Below are positions 8,393 through 39,813 of a stretch of DNA of 64,000 nucleotides, piece after piece. Source of the stretch: an uncultured virus (IMG/VR IMGVR_UViG_3300009785_000018) (taxonomy: Duplodnaviria; Heunggongvirae; Uroviricota; Caudoviricetes); IMG/VR virus record IMGVR_UViG_3300009785_000018; one strand, given 5' to 3'. The notes under the pieces were generated by a model. It ran no database searches, was not told the DNA's origin, and saw only the letters and a list, made by a program, of their open reading frames with translations. A program made the position numbers and the translations under genes. The first letter of the stretch is position 1, and each line of letters starts with the position of its first letter.

Positions 8393-8461
8393 TGGTGGAG
8401 GTGGGTGGAGTTGAACCACCGTGTTCAAACTAATAGCTTGAGTCGAAACCCTTACACCCCC
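8393..8461 (-). ncRNA. mini-tmRNA: tRNA-like domain only, no mRNA-like domain
   Basis: GGGGGTG-TAAGGGTTTCGAC-TCAAGCT ATT AGTTTGA-ACAC-GGTGG TTCAACT CCACC-CACCTCC-ACCA: acceptor stem with G3.U70, discriminator A, encoded CCA, tmRNA-type D-loop GGxTTCGAC without D-stem, canonical T-arm, no anticodon arm. Confidence 0.85.
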
Positions 8462-8488
8462 CTATAAATTATTCTATATTTGTGTAAT

Positions 8489-8520
8489 GTCGCCCCGCCC
8501 TAACCACAAGGCGAGACGAC
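8489..8520 (-). other. 13-bp hairpin between the 8523 gene and the mini-tmRNA
   Basis: GTCGTCTCGCCTT-GTGGTT-AGGGCGGGGCGAC; no U-tract after it. Confidence 0.6.
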
Positions 8521-8522
8521 TG

Positions 8523-10499: not shown

Positions 10500-10682
10500 T
10501 TAAAATTTAACAACGCTTTCTTGAGCGACCTCGACTTCATAGCCTAAACCTTTGATAACTTTGATATCATCGAATGTCAAGGTTTTTCTGCCAGTTAGTT
10601 TTATAAACAGTTCAGAATTGTCGCAGTTAGGATAAAAGTAGTAAGTCCCGTAGTGTTGTTTTTGTGTGATTGTGATTTTCAT
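10500..10682 (-). CDS. conserved phage hypothetical protein
   Basis: YG...YP...LTGRKTLT...IKGLGY motif; TTGACA-N16-CATAGT-7 nt-ATG. Confidence 0.75.
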   Translation of the reverse strand: MKITITQKQHYGTYYFYPNCDNSELFIKLTGRKTLTFDDIKVIKGLGYEVEVAQESVVKF

Positions 10683-10739
10683 AGCGATAACTATGTATCT
10701 TTAATTACATCTGTCAATACTTTTCTAAAAAAATATGAT

Positions 10740-10966
10740 CAATGGATGCCTCCTTTTTTTCTTGGGGTTGATCACCTCCCTCAGACTGCCGTCTTCTCTT
10801 TTTGTGTTTCCAAGGCTCGTCAGCCTAGGCGAGGTAATTACCTCCTATTTATTTGCCCTTTTTGTTTGGGCTTCTGCAGAAAAATAAGGCATTATTTCCG
10901 AGTTATTATCAATTGACCGCCTCAAGCCAAGACTCTAAGACTGATATTAATTAATATTAATCAATC
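10740..10966 (-). ncRNA. putative structured ncRNA (~225 nt) with multiple SD-like boxes
   Basis: Own promoter, no substantial minus-strand ORF, long-range stems (TCTTGG/CCAAGA, CTCGGA/TCTGAG, TGCC/GGCA) and three local hairpins. Confidence 0.6.
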
Positions 10967-10971
10967 CAAAC

Positions 10972-11000
10972 AAGCTACTCTTTAAGATGTTATTTGTCAA
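10972..11000 (-). promoter_or_regulatory. sigma70-type promoter for the putative ncRNA
   Basis: TTGACA(11000-10995)-17 nt-TAGCTT(10977-10972), not followed by ATG. Confidence 0.65.
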
Positions 11001-11222
11001 GAATGAAGTTCACATCTTCTAAATAATTTAATTAACAAAATTATTTTCTCATACATGATTCCATCCATTCAAGACAAATAGTATAATATAAAACCTAACA
11101 CACCCTTATCACATATTTGCACATGCTTCTATCTCGATTGAGTTGGGCTTTACCACGAGGCATCCGAAAATGTTACCCTCGCGAATAGTATTTTATATTA
11201 TTTGCAAAATTGCAAAGAACGA

Positions 11223-11423
11223 TTACGACTTTTTGGTCGGCTTTTTTGTGGTCTTTTTCGCGGGCTTTTGAGCTTTAGTTTTAAGTTCAGCAATTTCTGC
11301 TTGAGCTTTTTCATAAAGTTCAGCCACATCTTCAACTGCGCGGTTAACTTTTGTTGCGTTGTTACGAGCAACTAAGATACCTGCAATAAAGCCTGCGAGG
11401 ATTAGTAAGATTTCTATGATCAT
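11223..11423 (-). CDS. small membrane-anchored coiled-coil protein with Lys-rich tail
   Basis: N-terminal TM helix, coiled coil, KPAKKTTKKPTKKS. Confidence 0.75.
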   Translation of the reverse strand: MIIEILLILAGFIAGILVARNNATKVNRAVEDVAELYEKAQAEIAELKTKAQKPAKKTTKKPTKKS

Positions 11424-11425
11424 GG

Positions 11426-11560
11426 TTATTCTGCGATTACTGCGGAGCCACCACCGATTACACCTAATAGGTTTAATACGACTAGTGCGACTACGAGTCC
11501 GATTACTGTTTTCTTTTTATTGGCTTTCACCCAGTTGATTGCTGTTGTTACATATTTCAT
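11426..11560 (-). CDS. small membrane protein (44 aa, not in ORF track)
   Basis: MKYVTTAINWVKANKKKTVIGLVVALVVLNLLGVIGGGSAVIAE*. Confidence 0.7.
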   Translation of the reverse strand: MKYVTTAINWVKANKKKTVIGLVVALVVLNLLGVIGGGSAVIAE

Positions 11561-14610: not shown

Positions 14611-14644
14611 GCCCACAATCATGCAGACTTGATCATCTAAGTCA

Positions 14645-15797
14645 AGAACTTTTTTAAAAAAAAATAAAAAAAAGAAATTAAATTATCTGCCTATATATAA
14701 TATGCTATATAATATACCCTGTATAATATATCTTTTCTTATATACGCCCGCGCTTTTATTTGGCCAGATAAACCCTTTATTTTATAATATTTTTTTTTAT
14801 CGTGTCAAGAAAAAATTTTTTTATTTTATTTTTTTTTATTTTTTACATTGTCAAGAATATTTTATTTTTTTATATGCACATTTATTTGAGCAGAAAAAAA
14901 CTTTTTTTTATATTATTTATTTAAATTTTTTTTTTATTTTTTTATTATTTAATCCAATAAAAACTTTTTTTTATATTATTTTTTTATATTTATTTGGGAA
15001 AATAAAAACTTTTTTTTCGGAATTTACTGGTAGCTCCACTGAGATTCGAACTCAGATCTAAACATTAGAAGTGTCTTGTTCTATCCCTTGAACTATGGAA
15101 CCTTACTAATAAAGCATTTATTTGCGCGTTTAAAAACTTTTATTTATTTATTTATTTATTTATTTAAAAAACTTTTTTTATTTTTTTTATTTAAAAATAT
15201 TTTTTTATTTTTTTTATTTAAAAATATTTTTTTTATAAGAGGATTATATATATTTATTTATTTAAAAAACTTTTTTTATTTATATTTTTTTTTATTTATT
15301 TAGGAATAAAAAACTTTTATTTAGTCATGTCAAGACTATTCCGCTTATAACAGATACTTATTTATCAATATAAAAACCTATATTATGTCCGATATAACAC
15401 AAAAAAGCATTATTTATAGTATTATTTAAGGTATTTCTAAAAAAAATCCATTTATTTAAGAAATATAAACTGGATAATCCCCTACAAGACAAGAAACAGG
15501 GTTTTAGTTCTATTATTTCTTTATTTATCCTATGTATATTCCTTAATGTTATTTCTTTATATAGTATCCTTATATATTATATCTTATTATGCTATTTTAC
15601 TGAGGTAAAAGGTTATATTTGTATATAAAGCCCTACAAGGCTTTAGACCTTGAAAGTCTAGTTATACCCCTAGTTTATTTGGTGTATTATTTATAGCTAA
15701 CTATAGCCTACTTAAAACAGCTTTTAAATCTAAATTCTTCCTTTTATTACCAATATATTTTTAGATATTTAATATAAGGTGTCTGTTATTATTTAGT
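14645..15797. repeat. extremely AT-rich non-coding tract with AAAAACTTTT repeats
   Basis: About 7 copies of (T)AAAAACTTTT between 14895 and 15320, plus a tandem TTTTTTATTTTTTTTATTTAAAAATA duplication; T-skewed on + strand. Confidence 0.75.
15028..15102 (-). tRNA. tRNA-Arg(UCU)
   Basis: GGTTCCATAGTTCAAGGGATAGAAC...AGACA-CTTCTAA-TGTTT...GAGTTCGAATCTC...GCTACCA. Confidence 0.9.
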
Positions 15798-21579: not shown

Positions 21580-24204
21580 TTATTTGTCAATACTTTCTTT
21601 GAAATCTAAGTTTAAAATGCGAATTTTATCAGCGAACACAGTATTAGTCTTTTTCGTGCCCCTAAAAACAATAACGTCTTTTTTTTCTGGGAGTCTGCCG
21701 TATTGATCTTTCAAATCATCAACATTACTAAGAAATTCTGTTGTTCTGGTTGCTCTATCAAATCTGTTAAAGTTAAAAACCTGAACCCTACTTTGACCAT
21801 ATTCGTCGCCTATTGTAAGGGTTAGTTTTTTATTTCCTTTTTGAGTCTTACCAACACTCGCTTCTTGCACTATCCCGCAAGAAGTTACGATAGAATCTTC
21901 TACCGAATTCTCCAAATCTCCAAGATGTATAATACCTTTGTATTCTGGCTCTAGTATTTCAAATAATTTTTTACTATATGCAAAACCAAGAATGTCTTGC
22001 TCATAATAATAATTGTAGAAATCTACATACTTGGCGTAGCTACTCCATTCTAACTTGTGTGGAAGATATTTACTATAAAAGGTGTCCCAAGAAGATTTCT
22101 CTCCTGACTTGGTTTTACGTTTTTTTGTTGAGATAATTTCTTTTCCATCGCTGAGAAGTTTACCATCTTTAATATCAAGCAGAATATTTAGTAAATCATA
22201 ATTATATTTTTCTCCGAATTTAAATATTTTAGTTTTCTGAGAGTCCGTCAAAGCATTCCAACTAGCGGCCTCAAGAGTAAGTAGTCCCCTGTTATCCCCA
22301 AAAGAGCTCAAGCATCCTGCCTTAATGAGGTTAGACAAAATCCTAATATTAATACCAGACTTATTTGCCGCTTCAAATAGTTGGAATTTATTTGTCTGAA
22401 CTGAGTTAAACTCCTTAAGCTTTACAAGAGTCTTTTCCGAGACGGATTTTATTGACTTAATTCCATAGCGAATTATATTGCCTTCAACAGAGAAGTCTTC
22501 CTCAGATTTAACAAGGTCTGGTGGTCTGAGTTCAATACCAAAATATGGAAGCTCTTTACATATTTTCATAATACGAGCCTCGCTATCTTGGAACGAACGA
22601 GCAAGCATAAGACAGTTTTTGAAAAAGATTGCTGGATATTTAATCTTTAGATAAGCGCAGAGACAGCTAATGTATCCATATGAGTATGAATGGCTCGCAT
22701 TGAACTGATATTTCGCAGATGCTTGAACCGTCTCCCAAAAAATCTGAGTTGCGTCTTCTGGTATTCCCTGATCTATACCTGCCTTTTTAATTTTTTCTTC
22801 CCACTCCTTTACCTTTTCGAGCTGTTTCTTGCCAATAATTTTTCTTAAGATATCAGCTTCTACAAGAGAGAATTTGTAAACCTCGTGAGCAATTTTCATT
22901 GTTTGCTCTTGATATAGAATAACGCCAGAAGTGTTGGCTAGAATTTCATCGATAGGCGGATAAATAGATTTTATTTTACCAGTTTTTCTAGATTCTAAAA
23001 AGTCTTCCAAAAAAGCCAATGCACCCGGTCTGGCGATAGCGGAGATAGCAGAAATATCTGATATATTCTTAGGCTGAACTTGTTTGGTTACTTTACAAGC
23101 AGTGTCTCCATCTAACTGGAAGACTCCATAGCTATAATCAAACTTTTCAAATAGCTTGTATATCTCTGGGTCATTAGGATCAAAACTATTTAAATCGTAT
23201 CCTGCTTCTTTTGCTGTTTCATAAATGATTGTACAGGTCTTTAGACCCAAAGCATCAAGCTTTATTTCCTGCTCAGCAACATCGTCTTTTGTATATGATG
23301 AAGTTATAACGCCATCCCTATCTTCAAGTGGCAAAGAATTAAAAATTTCATCATATGATACAATAATACCTGCCGCATGGAGACCGAAGTTTTTCGGCAG
23401 GTCAGAAAGTTTCAAACATATATTATATATCTTAGGATTTTCCTCTACCCATTCCTTAAACTGATCATTCTTATCTAGGGTGTCTTTAAGGGAATCAAGC
23501 TTTCCTGCATCGCTCTCGATCATATTAGAAAGTCGGTTGGCTTGAGTTTCGTTATAGCCTCCATATTTCTTACAGACCTCTTTAAGAACCAGTTTTGTCG
23601 AAAGGGTATTAAGAGTAGAGATGTGCCCAGTCTTTTTAGGATATTTAGATCCCAAATATTCGTGAACTACTCGACTGCGATTGAGGTAACAAACATCAAA
23701 GTCAATATCTGGAACAGTGCTTCCGTCCGAATACTGTTCTCCATCAACAATTTTTGATTGAGCACGAGACTCATTAATAAAACGTTCAAAAATTAGATCA
23801 TACTTAATTGGATCAACCGCAGTTAAACCTATTAGATAAGATACCAGACTTCCTGCAACAGAACCACGACCCCAACCTCTGGCGATTTTATTTTCGTCAC
23901 ACCATTGAATCAGATCCCATACCATAAGAATATAGCGAGTGAATCCAAGTTTTTTAAGGGTTTCTAGCTCAAATTTTACACGCTCTCTGTAAATCTCCTT
24001 ATTTGGCAAGGAGTCGATATCTAGCTTTTTATATCCGTGCAGACAAAGCTGTCTAAGAATTTGATGTTCGTCTTTTGACAAATCTAAATCAAATTTCTTA
24101 GCATATGAACCTCCTATATTTACCTGCGGAATTCTAACTCCAAGGACATTATAAGTATCGGAATAATTTTCAAATTGACTTAAAAAATCTTTATCTTTAA
24201 TCAT
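21580..24204 (-). CDS. dnaE: DNA polymerase III alpha subunit, catalytic part lacking PHP domain
   Basis: GRGSVAGSLVSY, FERFIN, PDIDFD, HAAG, KLDALG, RPG, YQEQ, FNASH, C-terminal OB fold. Confidence 0.95.
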   Translation of the reverse strand: MIKDKDFLSQFENYSDTYNVLGVRIPQVNIGGSYAKKFDLDLSKDEHQILRQLCLHGYKKLDIDSLPNKEIYRERVKFELETLKKLGFTRYILMVWDLIQWCDENKIARGWGRGSVAGSLVSYLIGLTAVDPIKYDLIFERFINESRAQSKIVDGEQYSDGSTVPDIDFDVCYLNRSRVVHEYLGSKYPKKTGHISTLNTLSTKLVLKEVCKKYGGYNETQANRLSNMIESDAGKLDSLKDTLDKNDQFKEWVEENPKIYNICLKLSDLPKNFGLHAAGIIVSYDEIFNSLPLEDRDGVITSSYTKDDVAEQEIKLDALGLKTCTIIYETAKEAGYDLNSFDPNDPEIYKLFEKFDYSYGVFQLDGDTACKVTKQVQPKNISDISAISAIARPGALAFLEDFLESRKTGKIKSIYPPIDEILANTSGVILYQEQTMKIAHEVYKFSLVEADILRKIIGKKQLEKVKEWEEKIKKAGIDQGIPEDATQIFWETVQASAKYQFNASHSYSYGYISCLCAYLKIKYPAIFFKNCLMLARSFQDSEARIMKICKELPYFGIELRPPDLVKSEEDFSVEGNIIRYGIKSIKSVSEKTLVKLKEFNSVQTNKFQLFEAANKSGINIRILSNLIKAGCLSSFGDNRGLLTLEAASWNALTDSQKTKIFKFGEKYNYDLLNILLDIKDGKLLSDGKEIISTKKRKTKSGEKSSWDTFYSKYLPHKLEWSSYAKYVDFYNYYYEQDILGFAYSKKLFEILEPEYKGIIHLGDLENSVEDSIVTSCGIVQEASVGKTQKGNKKLTLTIGDEYGQSRVQVFNFNRFDRATRTTEFLSNVDDLKDQYGRLPEKKDVIVFRGTKKTNTVFADKIRILNLDFKESIDK

Positions 24205-24931
24205 TTGTTAATGCAAATTTATTTGAACAAAAGCCTTCAAGGTTTGGGCATTGAATACTACTTTTATTCTGAATACATCTATAAGTCAAGTATGCATCGA
24301 TATCTTCCTCGCTCTTATATCTTACGCTATGACTTTTGATATAGTCATAGTCATTTTCCTTGCAATATTCTTTTATTTTAATAGCCATCATCCGATCTAG
24401 TGGTAGCTCGTGATATTCAACGCAAAACACAGGATTATATTCTTGGAATTTTACCAAACAATTACCAAATGAGAATAAATTTTTATGCAGAAAGTTATCG
24501 TAAAATGGAACCATCATTAGCATATCGTCCCCCCAAAATTCTTTGATTCGATCAAAATCTGTTCTCGGCAAACCATTGTAATTTCCCCTTGTTGCGGCAT
24601 CACTATATAGCTTCATTAAAATGCTCTTATATGCCTCGCCAGTCTTGGCAATAAAAACCATTTTATGCTCCGTAGAAATCGATTCTAGCTCTTTGTCGTC
24701 TGAGTTATCACAGACTGTCAAGGAGAGCCCATAAACGAGCTGTAGACCTAGTTCTGTAGCGTTGCTGAGTGCTTGAGGGAAAGAGGATGGGTTTTTTTCG
24801 ATTAAAAATACCTGATCTATATTGTTTTCTTTTGCAATCTGAAAAATAGAATCGCTACCGCCCTCCTTTGATTTTTTATCAATGGTAAGAATTGAGTTCA
24901 GGGAGTTGGCACTAGAAAACAAATAAATCAC
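24197..24931 (-). CDS. PHP domain of DNA polymerase III alpha, as a separate gene
   Basis: S..S.L.I, LVYGL.L, ..AKT.E.YK..L.KL.S.A; overlaps dnaE start. Confidence 0.75.
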   Translation of the reverse strand: MIYLFSSANSLNSILTIDKKSKEGGSDSIFQIAKENNIDQVFLIEKNPSSFPQALSNATELGLQLVYGLSLTVCDNSDDKELESISTEHKMVFIAKTGEAYKSILMKLYSDAATRGNYNGLPRTDFDRIKEFWGDDMLMMVPFYDNFLHKNLFSFGNCLVKFQEYNPVFCVEYHELPLDRMMAIKIKEYCKENDYDYIKSHSVRYKSEEDIDAYLTYRCIQNKSSIQCPNLEGFCSNKFALTND

Positions 24932-39048: not shown

Positions 39049-39813
39049 TTAAATATTTAGCAACTTAAAATAATAATCATAATATTCTGTAATATTTTCT
39101 ATATTATCTCTTGTCTCGTCGTTTTCTATTAAATTATTAAATATGTCTTTGTCAGCACACCATTTTCTACCAGTCCAAAACTCAAAACCAGGAAATGAGC
39201 TTTTATATTTGGCGTGACTTTCATAACTTGGACCTATATAAAGATATTTTAGATTTAAATCTTTGGCCAATGAGATTTCTCTGTATGTAGAGAATCTGCC
39301 TAAACCCAGAGTTGGATCAGCGTAATCCCAGCAAAATTGGTGAGCTATAAGACTTCTACCAACTATTTCAGTAGTGGTAAAGGCTACATCTCCATATAGT
39401 ATATAGATATCACTGTTAGTATTATAAACATTATAAAAATCTTCTTCTGATAAAATATGAGTAAATTTTTTGTATGTTACATATTTTAAATAAATTTTGT
39501 ATAATTTTTCAAAATCAGGGGTTTTTGTAACCTCTATTTTAATATTGCTTTTTTCTACCCTTTTCCAGCATTTAGTCTCTTTATTTACTTTTTTATGCTT
39601 GCTTATATCTAATCTAGCCTGACGACTCTGATACCAAATTATTTTATTATCTTTTAAGAAATTAGTATCTTGGTTATACCATATGTTTGAAGGACACCAA
39701 CCCTTGTCTAAAGCTTCTTGCTCTTCACCCTTTTCAACTGTTGCACTTACTAAACAATGTAAAAAATCATAATCTGCTTGCTTGCCACAAATATGATCAA
39801 AATATAATTCCAT
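39049..39813 (-). CDS. aminoacyl-tRNA-protein transferase (ATE1/Bpt family)
   Basis: L..GW...R..R; Y.KY...K; WDY....LG.FS...EI..AK...LKYLYIG.....YK. Confidence 0.75.
   Translation of the reverse strand: MELYFDHICGKQADYDFLHCLVSATVEKGEEQEALDKGWCPSNIWYNQDTNFLKDNKIIWYQSRQARLDISKHKKVNKETKCWKRVEKSNIKIEVTKTPDFEKLYKIYLKYVTYKKFTHILSEEDFYNVYNTNSDIYILYGDVAFTTTEIVGRSLIAHQFCWDYADPTLGLGRFSTYREISLAKDLNLKYLYIGPSYESHAKYKSSFPGFEFWTGRKWCADKDIFNNLIENDETRDNIENITEYYDYYFKLLNI

Follow-up and report, generated by a model that had tools for sequence, protein, structure and literature searches.

A conserved phage RNA cassette with three Shine-Dalgarno-like boxes, a candidate decoy for the anti-Shine-Dalgarno tail of 16S rRNA

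The DNA analysed here, called the window throughout, is a stretch of 64,000 nucleotides from a large tailed phage which encodes a DnaE-type polymerase, DnaB, a primase, a RecA-like protein, ribonucleotide reductase and sugar enzymes. Its RNA genes are three tRNAs and a tmRNA pared down to the tRNA-like domain (TLD). The polymerases of the nearest isolated phages are about 30% alike, and the metatranscriptome runs which match the window are all from seawater. A relative of 141 kb, G003, additionally has the terminase and structural genes. The TAG codon is the stop of 9 of the 101 window genes and code 11 holds, so a read-through of TAG in the minus frame was dropped as a possibility. The first 16 kb of the window consist of short minus-strand cassettes in series, many of them with a TTGACA promoter ahead. 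The features of the cassette considered here and those of its surroundings are as follows.

10972..11000, minus strand: predicted sigma70-type promoter TTGACA-N17-TAGCTT, with TTGACA at 11000-10995 and TAGCTT at 10977-10972
10727..10967, minus strand: predicted non-coding RNA of about 240 nt that runs between the expected start site and a U-tract, both ends being predictions
10939..10966, minus strand: 5' hairpin of 7 pairs at the expected start site
10737..10918, minus strand: closing helix, 10918-10912 with 10743-10737, predicted in both folds A and B
10780..10902, minus strand: rod of three helices with three capping hairpins (fold B), the inner rod of the first-pass annotation
10846-10840, minus strand: box 1, AGGAGGT, forming the 5' side of a 5-bp hairpin with perfect pairing
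10779-10770, minus strand: box 2, GGAGGTGATC, exactly complementary to the 16S tail over 10 nt and adjoining the rod on its 3' side
10755-10749, minus strand: box 3, AAGGAGG, overlapping a 3-bp hairpin which we take to be of the GNRA type
10725..10742, minus strand: 5-codon frame, possibly fortuitous, whose TTG is 6 nt downstream of box 3
11085..11225, minus strand: conserved non-coding stretch with a boxA-like head (8 of 141 sites differ; fold z -0.92)
8393..8461, minus strand: TLD-only tmRNA (Rfam RF00023, 49.4 bits), in which 21 nt replace 326 model positions

The first-pass annotation had proposed a TTGACA-N17-TAGCTT promoter in front of a structured RNA with three Shine-Dalgarno (SD) boxes. 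The motifs, the coordinates and the 17-nt spacer of the promoter were all found as described, and so were the motifs and coordinates of the three boxes. The promoter was missed by a consensus scan and its -10 has 3 of 6 matches; 41 of its 43 sites are identical in G003, and the DNA immediately upstream of it is different in each of three haplotypes. The RNA data are contigs from 4 of the 7 matching seawater metatranscriptomes, and such contigs carry no strand, ends or level. They cover parts of 10530-11560 (4 seawater runs). Over the unit the depth is about 3, with 10821-10978 covered in one run and 10921-11204, which crosses the promoter, in another; over the upstream ORFs it is 7-8, figures by which contigs cannot rank expression. 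The absence of contigs over 10729-10820, where boxes 2 and 3 lie, is uninformative.

The contig spanning 10921-11204 joins the side of the three-box unit to the upstream conserved stretch, and 11085..11225 may be on the same read-through transcript as the unit. The boxA-like motif of this stretch (11221-11213, compared with the boxA of E. coli rrnA) abuts the stop of the last ORF. BoxA sites have a function related to antitermination, and antitermination may take place at this motif as well. Perhaps by chance, 9 nt of the stretch are also perfectly complementary to box 3. Elsewhere in the phage group, L087 2397-2968 holds two ORF-less promoter cassettes, and this boxA-like motif heads both of them; the end of the first resembles a tRNA acceptor stem with ACCA, the second has tRNA-like loops, and no Rfam match was obtained for either.

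Orthologous loci were located via a downstream gene of 60 amino acids, independently of the boxes (L037, with a 17-residue match, was excluded). The unit is present at 4 of 7 such loci (L028, L029, L032 and L034), and at L033, L035 and L036 the same slot has a promoter and a 102-aa ORF instead; by this comparison of sequences the unit is a swappable promoter cassette. L029 has insertions upstream of the promoter (~2420-2500 and ~2590-2690) which are not in the window, the first being a long hairpin with 12-bp perfect arms, and L032 shows a third arrangement. No distant homologue was found in records that were nearly all fragments: blastn gave 16 short chance matches in annotated phages and 1 in plasmids, pattern searches of viral contigs returned in one case the genome itself and 1 chance match, in another 2 lineages, both known already, and in another 24 candidates, of which 2 were real by model search, and neither whole-record searches of G002 and G004-G015 (all but two incomplete) nor a sequence model run over 58 sources added a homologue, a weak match in L013 lying inside a gene. 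L013, L014 and L032-L036 were compared as loci and not as whole records.

The unit occurs in three haplotypes, that of the window (with an identical IMG/VR contig), that of L032 with 2 changes, and that of G003 and L034. Against G003, 16 of the unit's 241 sites are substituted and 3 are gapped; the box region is changed at 4 of 122 sites and the core at 9 of 194. The corresponding figures are 2 of 69 for the TLD RNA, 2 of 159 for the tRNAs, 11-31% for the spacers (7 of the 11, which aligned) and 18-49% for the third codon positions of 11 neighbouring genes, and against a rate of 18% the conservation of the box region has a P of about 7e-7. Within these three haplotypes boxes 1 and 3 are unchanged and box 2 has one change, a U to C in the G003 lineage which loses one pair with the tail. 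The indels that separate the window from G003 lie in a loop and in a linker, and they break the 15-codon ORF. This ORF of the first-pass annotation was found at 10892-10845 (minus strand) and is frameshifted in G003. Four one-sided changes leave pairs intact on the minus strand by way of G-U where the plus strand would have mismatches, and these changes favour an RNA made from the minus strand. Covariation among the three sequences is not significant (166 of 500 shuffles did as well).

The comparison of the lineages shows, at the level of sequence, a unit selected as an RNA and not as a protein gene and conserved like a tRNA. We consider it very probable that it is a real, new, lineage-restricted phage ncRNA. 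This selection supports the claim of a promoter-driven structured ncRNA, as does the nature of what changed from one lineage to the other, the transcript itself being predicted. The region has turned out to be neither a small translated ORF nor a member of an Rfam family, and the boxes are kept in the homologues except for the one substitution in box 2.

Folding of the unit against shuffled controls gave a z of -2.83, and of the core 10735-10920 a z of -4.18; the G003 variant is less distinct (z -1.69) and the plus strand folds worse than the minus strand (z -1.16 vs -2.83). Two structures are nearly equal, fold A with the lowest energy of -62.5 and fold B with -60.7, a gap of 1.8 kcal/mol. 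The 5' hairpin and the closing helix are common to both. In the hairpin 6 of 33 sites differ and the pairing is kept, by a double change from G-C to A-U and a single one from U-G to U-A, and in the closing helix a change from C-G to U-G keeps the pair. Fold A conceals all boxes in long-range helices (box 2 is 15% unpaired in the window variant), and fold B has boxes 2 and 3 in weak hairpins behind the rod. The alignment cannot choose between them because both are 99% paired (98.9% of cells in fold B) with two breaks apiece. The capped rod described earlier therefore stands in part: its inner portion is fold B, but this lies 1.8 kcal/mol above fold A, and the proposed outer helices TCTTGG/CCAAGA and GGTCA/TGATC did not hold, each having one mismatch more in G003. 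A better partner for the 5' GGTCAAT than the one in the proposed outer helix is ATTGATC at 10743-10737. For transcript prefixes of 190-215 nt the lowest-energy fold is B.

The tail used in the duplex scoring was that of E. coli, taken from rrsA, which serves as a stand-in. With its last 13 nt box 1 has a duplex energy of -12.0. Box 2 has -22.2 with the E. coli tail and outranks every other site on either strand of the window, the next one having -16.7, and box 3 is the third-best tail site. In G003 box 2 has -23.4 with a 22-nt tail and is the best site in 141 kb despite the U-to-C change; across the 64 kb window and the 141 kb of G003 it ranks first or second. An extended match of box 2 to the 16S end had been claimed, of which the exact 10-mer stands and the continuation needs one bulge and one mismatch; extension past the 10-mer would require opening of 16S helix 45. 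Beyond the tail no other match to E. coli rrnA was found in the unit, and no long antisense target of the RNA in the window or G003.

All three boxes have the form GGAGGY(R)AUY, and to judge from the sequence they look like copies of one hairpin unit. This motif was picked post hoc; as GGAGGY(R)ATY it has 4 sites on the two strands of the window, 3 of them in the unit, and in G003, with the same reservation, 3 of 5 sites are within the unit. Dinucleotide shuffles of the unit contained at least three GGAGG in 147 of 20000 cases, at least three GGAGGY in 3 of 20000, and the 10-mer of box 2 in 3 of 20000. A second cluster of 3 GGAGG per 100 nt is found at 3820-3766 within a gene, so the bare cluster is less rare. 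By the shuffles and by the ranking of sites in the window, with the E. coli tail as stand-in, the extended complement to the 16S tail exceeds chance. The claim that no ATG follows any box holds for boxes 1 and 2, which have no start codon (no ATG, GTG or TTG 3-12 nt downstream of box 1), but box 3 is followed by the TTG at 6 nt, and the frame behind it is of equal length in both lineages with one residue different.

In the model, opening of any box costs 3-8 kcal/mol, which is below the duplex gain. When the 13-nt tail is added the full window RNA takes up fold B and has the tail bound to box 2 at the rod's foot, with a net of -8.8; the G003 variant gives a net of -9.4, but with a different fold. 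In co-folding with the tail the tile containing the unit ties for the best of the 532 tiles of the window. It should be noted that after correction for folding the box 2 site is among the top 1-2% and no outlier, two other tiles being tied at -11.1.

SD motifs had been described as nearly absent upstream of genes, and the count agrees: GGAGG within 20 nt upstream is found in 0 of 101 window genes, AGGA in 4 and GGAG in 2. Among long ORFs of G003 and G012, for which start calls are crude, 9 of 225 have a tail duplex below -7. The genes of this phage are SD-less. A few structural-region genes of G003 (L117 9433, L118 4872 and 7540) have strong SD-like leaders, by predicted starts. The host is probably SD-poor because the phage itself is SD-less. 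There is a weak hint that the host belongs to the Verrucomicrobiota: the Atlas clusters returned were viral, Verrucomicrobiota and Bacteroidota. The 5' end of the tmRNA has matches in 47 genomes, Spirochaete and Oscillospiraceae among them, and the cluster names searched for a host indicated none. Some members of the Verrucomicrobiota are listed as SD-scarce in PMC10783764.

The leading reading of the unit, which we put forward as a good possibility somewhat short of an even one, is that it would act as a decoy for the anti-SD tail. The model hypothesizes that the host sigma70 RNA polymerase would make the RNA early, from its own promoter and by read-through past the boxA-like site. The RNA would fold co-transcriptionally into the capped rod, leaving box 2 exposed at the foot, and the 16S tail would pair with box 2, boxes 1 and 3 being weaker extra sites. 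As boxes 1 and 2 are without a start codon at the right distance, the complex would lead nowhere. Subunits whose tail is free would be held, or the tail masked, and SD-led host messages would be hit harder than the SD-less phage messages. In an SD-poor host the target would not be bulk translation but the few SD-dependent control messages, or tail-exposed subunits, which in such a host might be immature or without bS21.

The decoy is ranked first because the repeated letters are those that the tail needs and are near-unique to this RNA in an SD-less genome, and because the boxes appear to be under selection and the modelled binding survives the RNA's own folding. It is supported by the fact that all boxes continue past GGAGG with letters required by the tail, and by the fact that the phage retains the TLD-only tmRNA, another decoy-like RNA. 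The reading is weakened because the sole change in a box removes a pair with the tail, and because the window variant, in its lowest-energy fold, has all boxes paired. Since the boxes resemble hairpin copies, their letters are perhaps shared by descent and not by separate selection. Bulk competition would not be expected to pay in an SD-poor host, a sponge must be abundant and the contigs of the unit are no deeper than those of its neighbours, and three close relatives manage without the unit; each of these also counts against the decoy.

Among the alternatives the best surviving one, to which we give a minor but real weight, is a structured RNA that serves another function, the boxes being G-rich strands of stems that arose by internal duplication and their SD likeness being incidental. 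Every box is indeed the 5' strand of a small hairpin, all three have internal pyrimidine partners, and the non-box sequence is as conserved as the boxes (the 9 of 194 sites in the core). On this account the two near-equal folds, with the same pairing and breaks, may make the RNA a switch. The rarity of the exact 10-nt tail complement in shuffles argues against it, as does the finding that it is the letters in the loops of these box hairpins which pair with the tail.

A sponge or substrate for a protein binding GGAG(G) hairpins, such as a CsrA/RsmA-type repressor, S1, a translational repressor or a RegB-like nuclease, is unlikely. The CsrB and RsmY sponges have repeated hairpin units in an untranslated RNA, and one untranslated RNA with three repeated hairpin units has the layout of a protein sponge; CsrB, RsmY and RsmZ share with the unit repeated GGA hairpins that are untranslated. 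But the 6 GGA in 241 nt compare with 4.3 expected and are not enriched, one of them is absent in L032, and the GGAs of the boxes are in stems, not loops, in both folds. The Rfam models of CsrB/Rsm gave no match at E<=10, and no RegB was found in the 5 of 5 records searched, none of them complete. The CsrA/RsmA sponge suggested in the first-pass annotation is weak on these grounds.

The boxes would pair with CCUCC-type seeds as well as with the 16S tail, and phages are known to carry sponges for small RNAs, so a sponge for host small RNAs with anti-SD seeds, relieving repression in infection, could be imagined; the match of the boxes runs on into letters specific for the 16S tail, and we regard this reading as improbable.

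Slightly less credit is due to a 6S-like decoy of RNA polymerase, or to a cassette acting at the DNA level or recently swapped and neutral. The closed ends and the rod with internal loops recall 6S RNA (RF00013), which is of similar size with paired ends, but folds A and B both have multi-branch loops and not an unbranched rod with a central bubble, and the 6S model matched in 0 of 5 records at E<=10, with none in the region, whereas a control detected 6S in 7 of 14 genomes. The 6S alternative of the first-pass annotation is accordingly weak. Cassettes of this region are exchanged between phages. A recent swap is unlikely because it would have levelled the 5' hairpin too, and this has drifted more than the box region has (6 of 33 sites and 4 of 122, respectively; P 0.007). 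The Rfam covariance models gave for the unit only chance-level eukaryotic matches (E 4.4-8) and no family; likenesses to a hammerhead, SRP or RNase P were dropped after inspection by eye, there being no such match.

It is very improbable that the unit is a mini-message in which box 3 would place ribosomes at the TTG for the sake of the 5-codon frame or of its translation, with the remainder gating access. The spacing is canonical, the length of the frame is the same in both lineages, and box 3 is hidden by fold A and freed by fold B; however, AT-rich DNA often has a TTG at such a distance, the closing helix and the A/T tract of the next promoter overlap the frame and account for its conservation, and boxes 1 and 2 are left unexplained. 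A protein gene is scarcely credible and by the sequence comparison largely refuted: a plus-strand ORF of 56 codons (10746-10916) is open in all haplotypes with its stop changed from TGA to TAA and starts 7 nt behind a promoter-like site (10711-10739), but it has 6 amino-acid changes, 1 silent change and one frameshifted stretch against G003 where a coding sequence would have silent changes in about 1/4 of its codons, 1377 of 5000 shuffles contain a comparable open stretch, the -10 of the promoter-like site is without its key A in G003, the frame of the minus-strand 15-codon ORF is broken there, and neither a kept frame nor an excess of silent changes, as in a small protein gene, was seen.

The decoy reading can be compared with systems described in the literature. 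Artificial RNAs with rows of SD-like motifs deplete free 30S in E. coli (Mawn 2002, as cited by PMC3986360). As described there, they have several SD boxes per RNA and the same proposed effect as the three-box RNA, whereas the latter is natural, folded, phage-borne and apparently under selection, with an effect that is proposed. Phages of SD-poor hosts encode a bS21 which acts at the anti-SD tail and is proposed to favour phage messages (PMC9723584); in that account it is a protein that joins the ribosome and is expressed late, whereas the three-box unit is an RNA in an early cassette, and no bS21 was found in 5 of 5 records, all incomplete. Takeover of ribosomes by phages is described in PMC7162821 through protein routes. 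No precedent for a natural phage anti-SD decoy appeared in the open literature, by titles and the opening of abstracts, and a word search did not find the RNA in the main text and 6 supplementary files of PMC10690425. The RNA itself is, as far as sequence goes, new because no Rfam family and no natural precedent was found; the mechanism is held less firmly, as stated above.

Capture of host ribosomes by phages is known mostly via proteins, that is bS21, S1-like proteins and initiation factors. If the decoy reading is true, an RNA bait for the 16S tail would add a new route, and would be the natural counterpart of what has so far been seen with artificial transcripts. If the host is SD-poor, the RNA would be a probe of the purpose of the conserved tail in such bacteria.

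The mycobacteriophage DS6A has a TLD-only tmRNA of a type proposed to titrate SmpB (PMC4131195). A TLD RNA as described there is likewise a phage RNA pared to a decoy of a translation component; it mimics tmRNA and would titrate SmpB, and its sequence and fold are unrelated to those of the three-box RNA. In the window the TLD-only tmRNA lies 2.3 kb from the three-box RNA, and it is retained at 5 of 5 aligned loci. It is also found at L029 4817-4886 and in L032, L087 and L088, those of L087 and L088 being without an encoded CCA, and it is commoner in the phage group than the three-box RNA. A message-like piece of tmRNA partnering the TLD-only RNA was considered and rejected: by inspection the candidate frames shift between lineages, and no tmRNA model matched. 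A wider proposal is that a natural RNA of an SD-less phage would capture the anti-SD tail and tilt or retune initiation to the phage's advantage, and that with the TLD-only tmRNA and the boxA-led cassettes it would form an all-RNA kit for the takeover of translation. This is a real possibility, which we hold to be slightly less likely than the decoy by itself. Neither a reverse transcriptase nor a translation factor was found among the 90 of 125 G003 ORFs and the 66 window ORFs scanned.

Some further features of the phage group should be mentioned. DnaE is in two parts in the window (21580-24931, minus strand), an N-terminal one of 244 aa and one of 874 aa, and is split in all relatives seen. 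The gene at 39049-39813 (minus strand) resembles arginyl-tRNA-protein transferase. The stretch 14640-15330 has very AT-rich repeats around tRNA-Arg, with recurring motifs of the CCAAATAAAT type and copies of TTGACA, and is possibly an origin or packaging region. A conserved GC-rich hairpin, its loop constant and A-rich DNA behind it, is found repeatedly between cassettes of the group, with sites at 8478-8522 (minus strand) of the window, L087 3708-3763 and 4760-4790, and L088 11192-11243.
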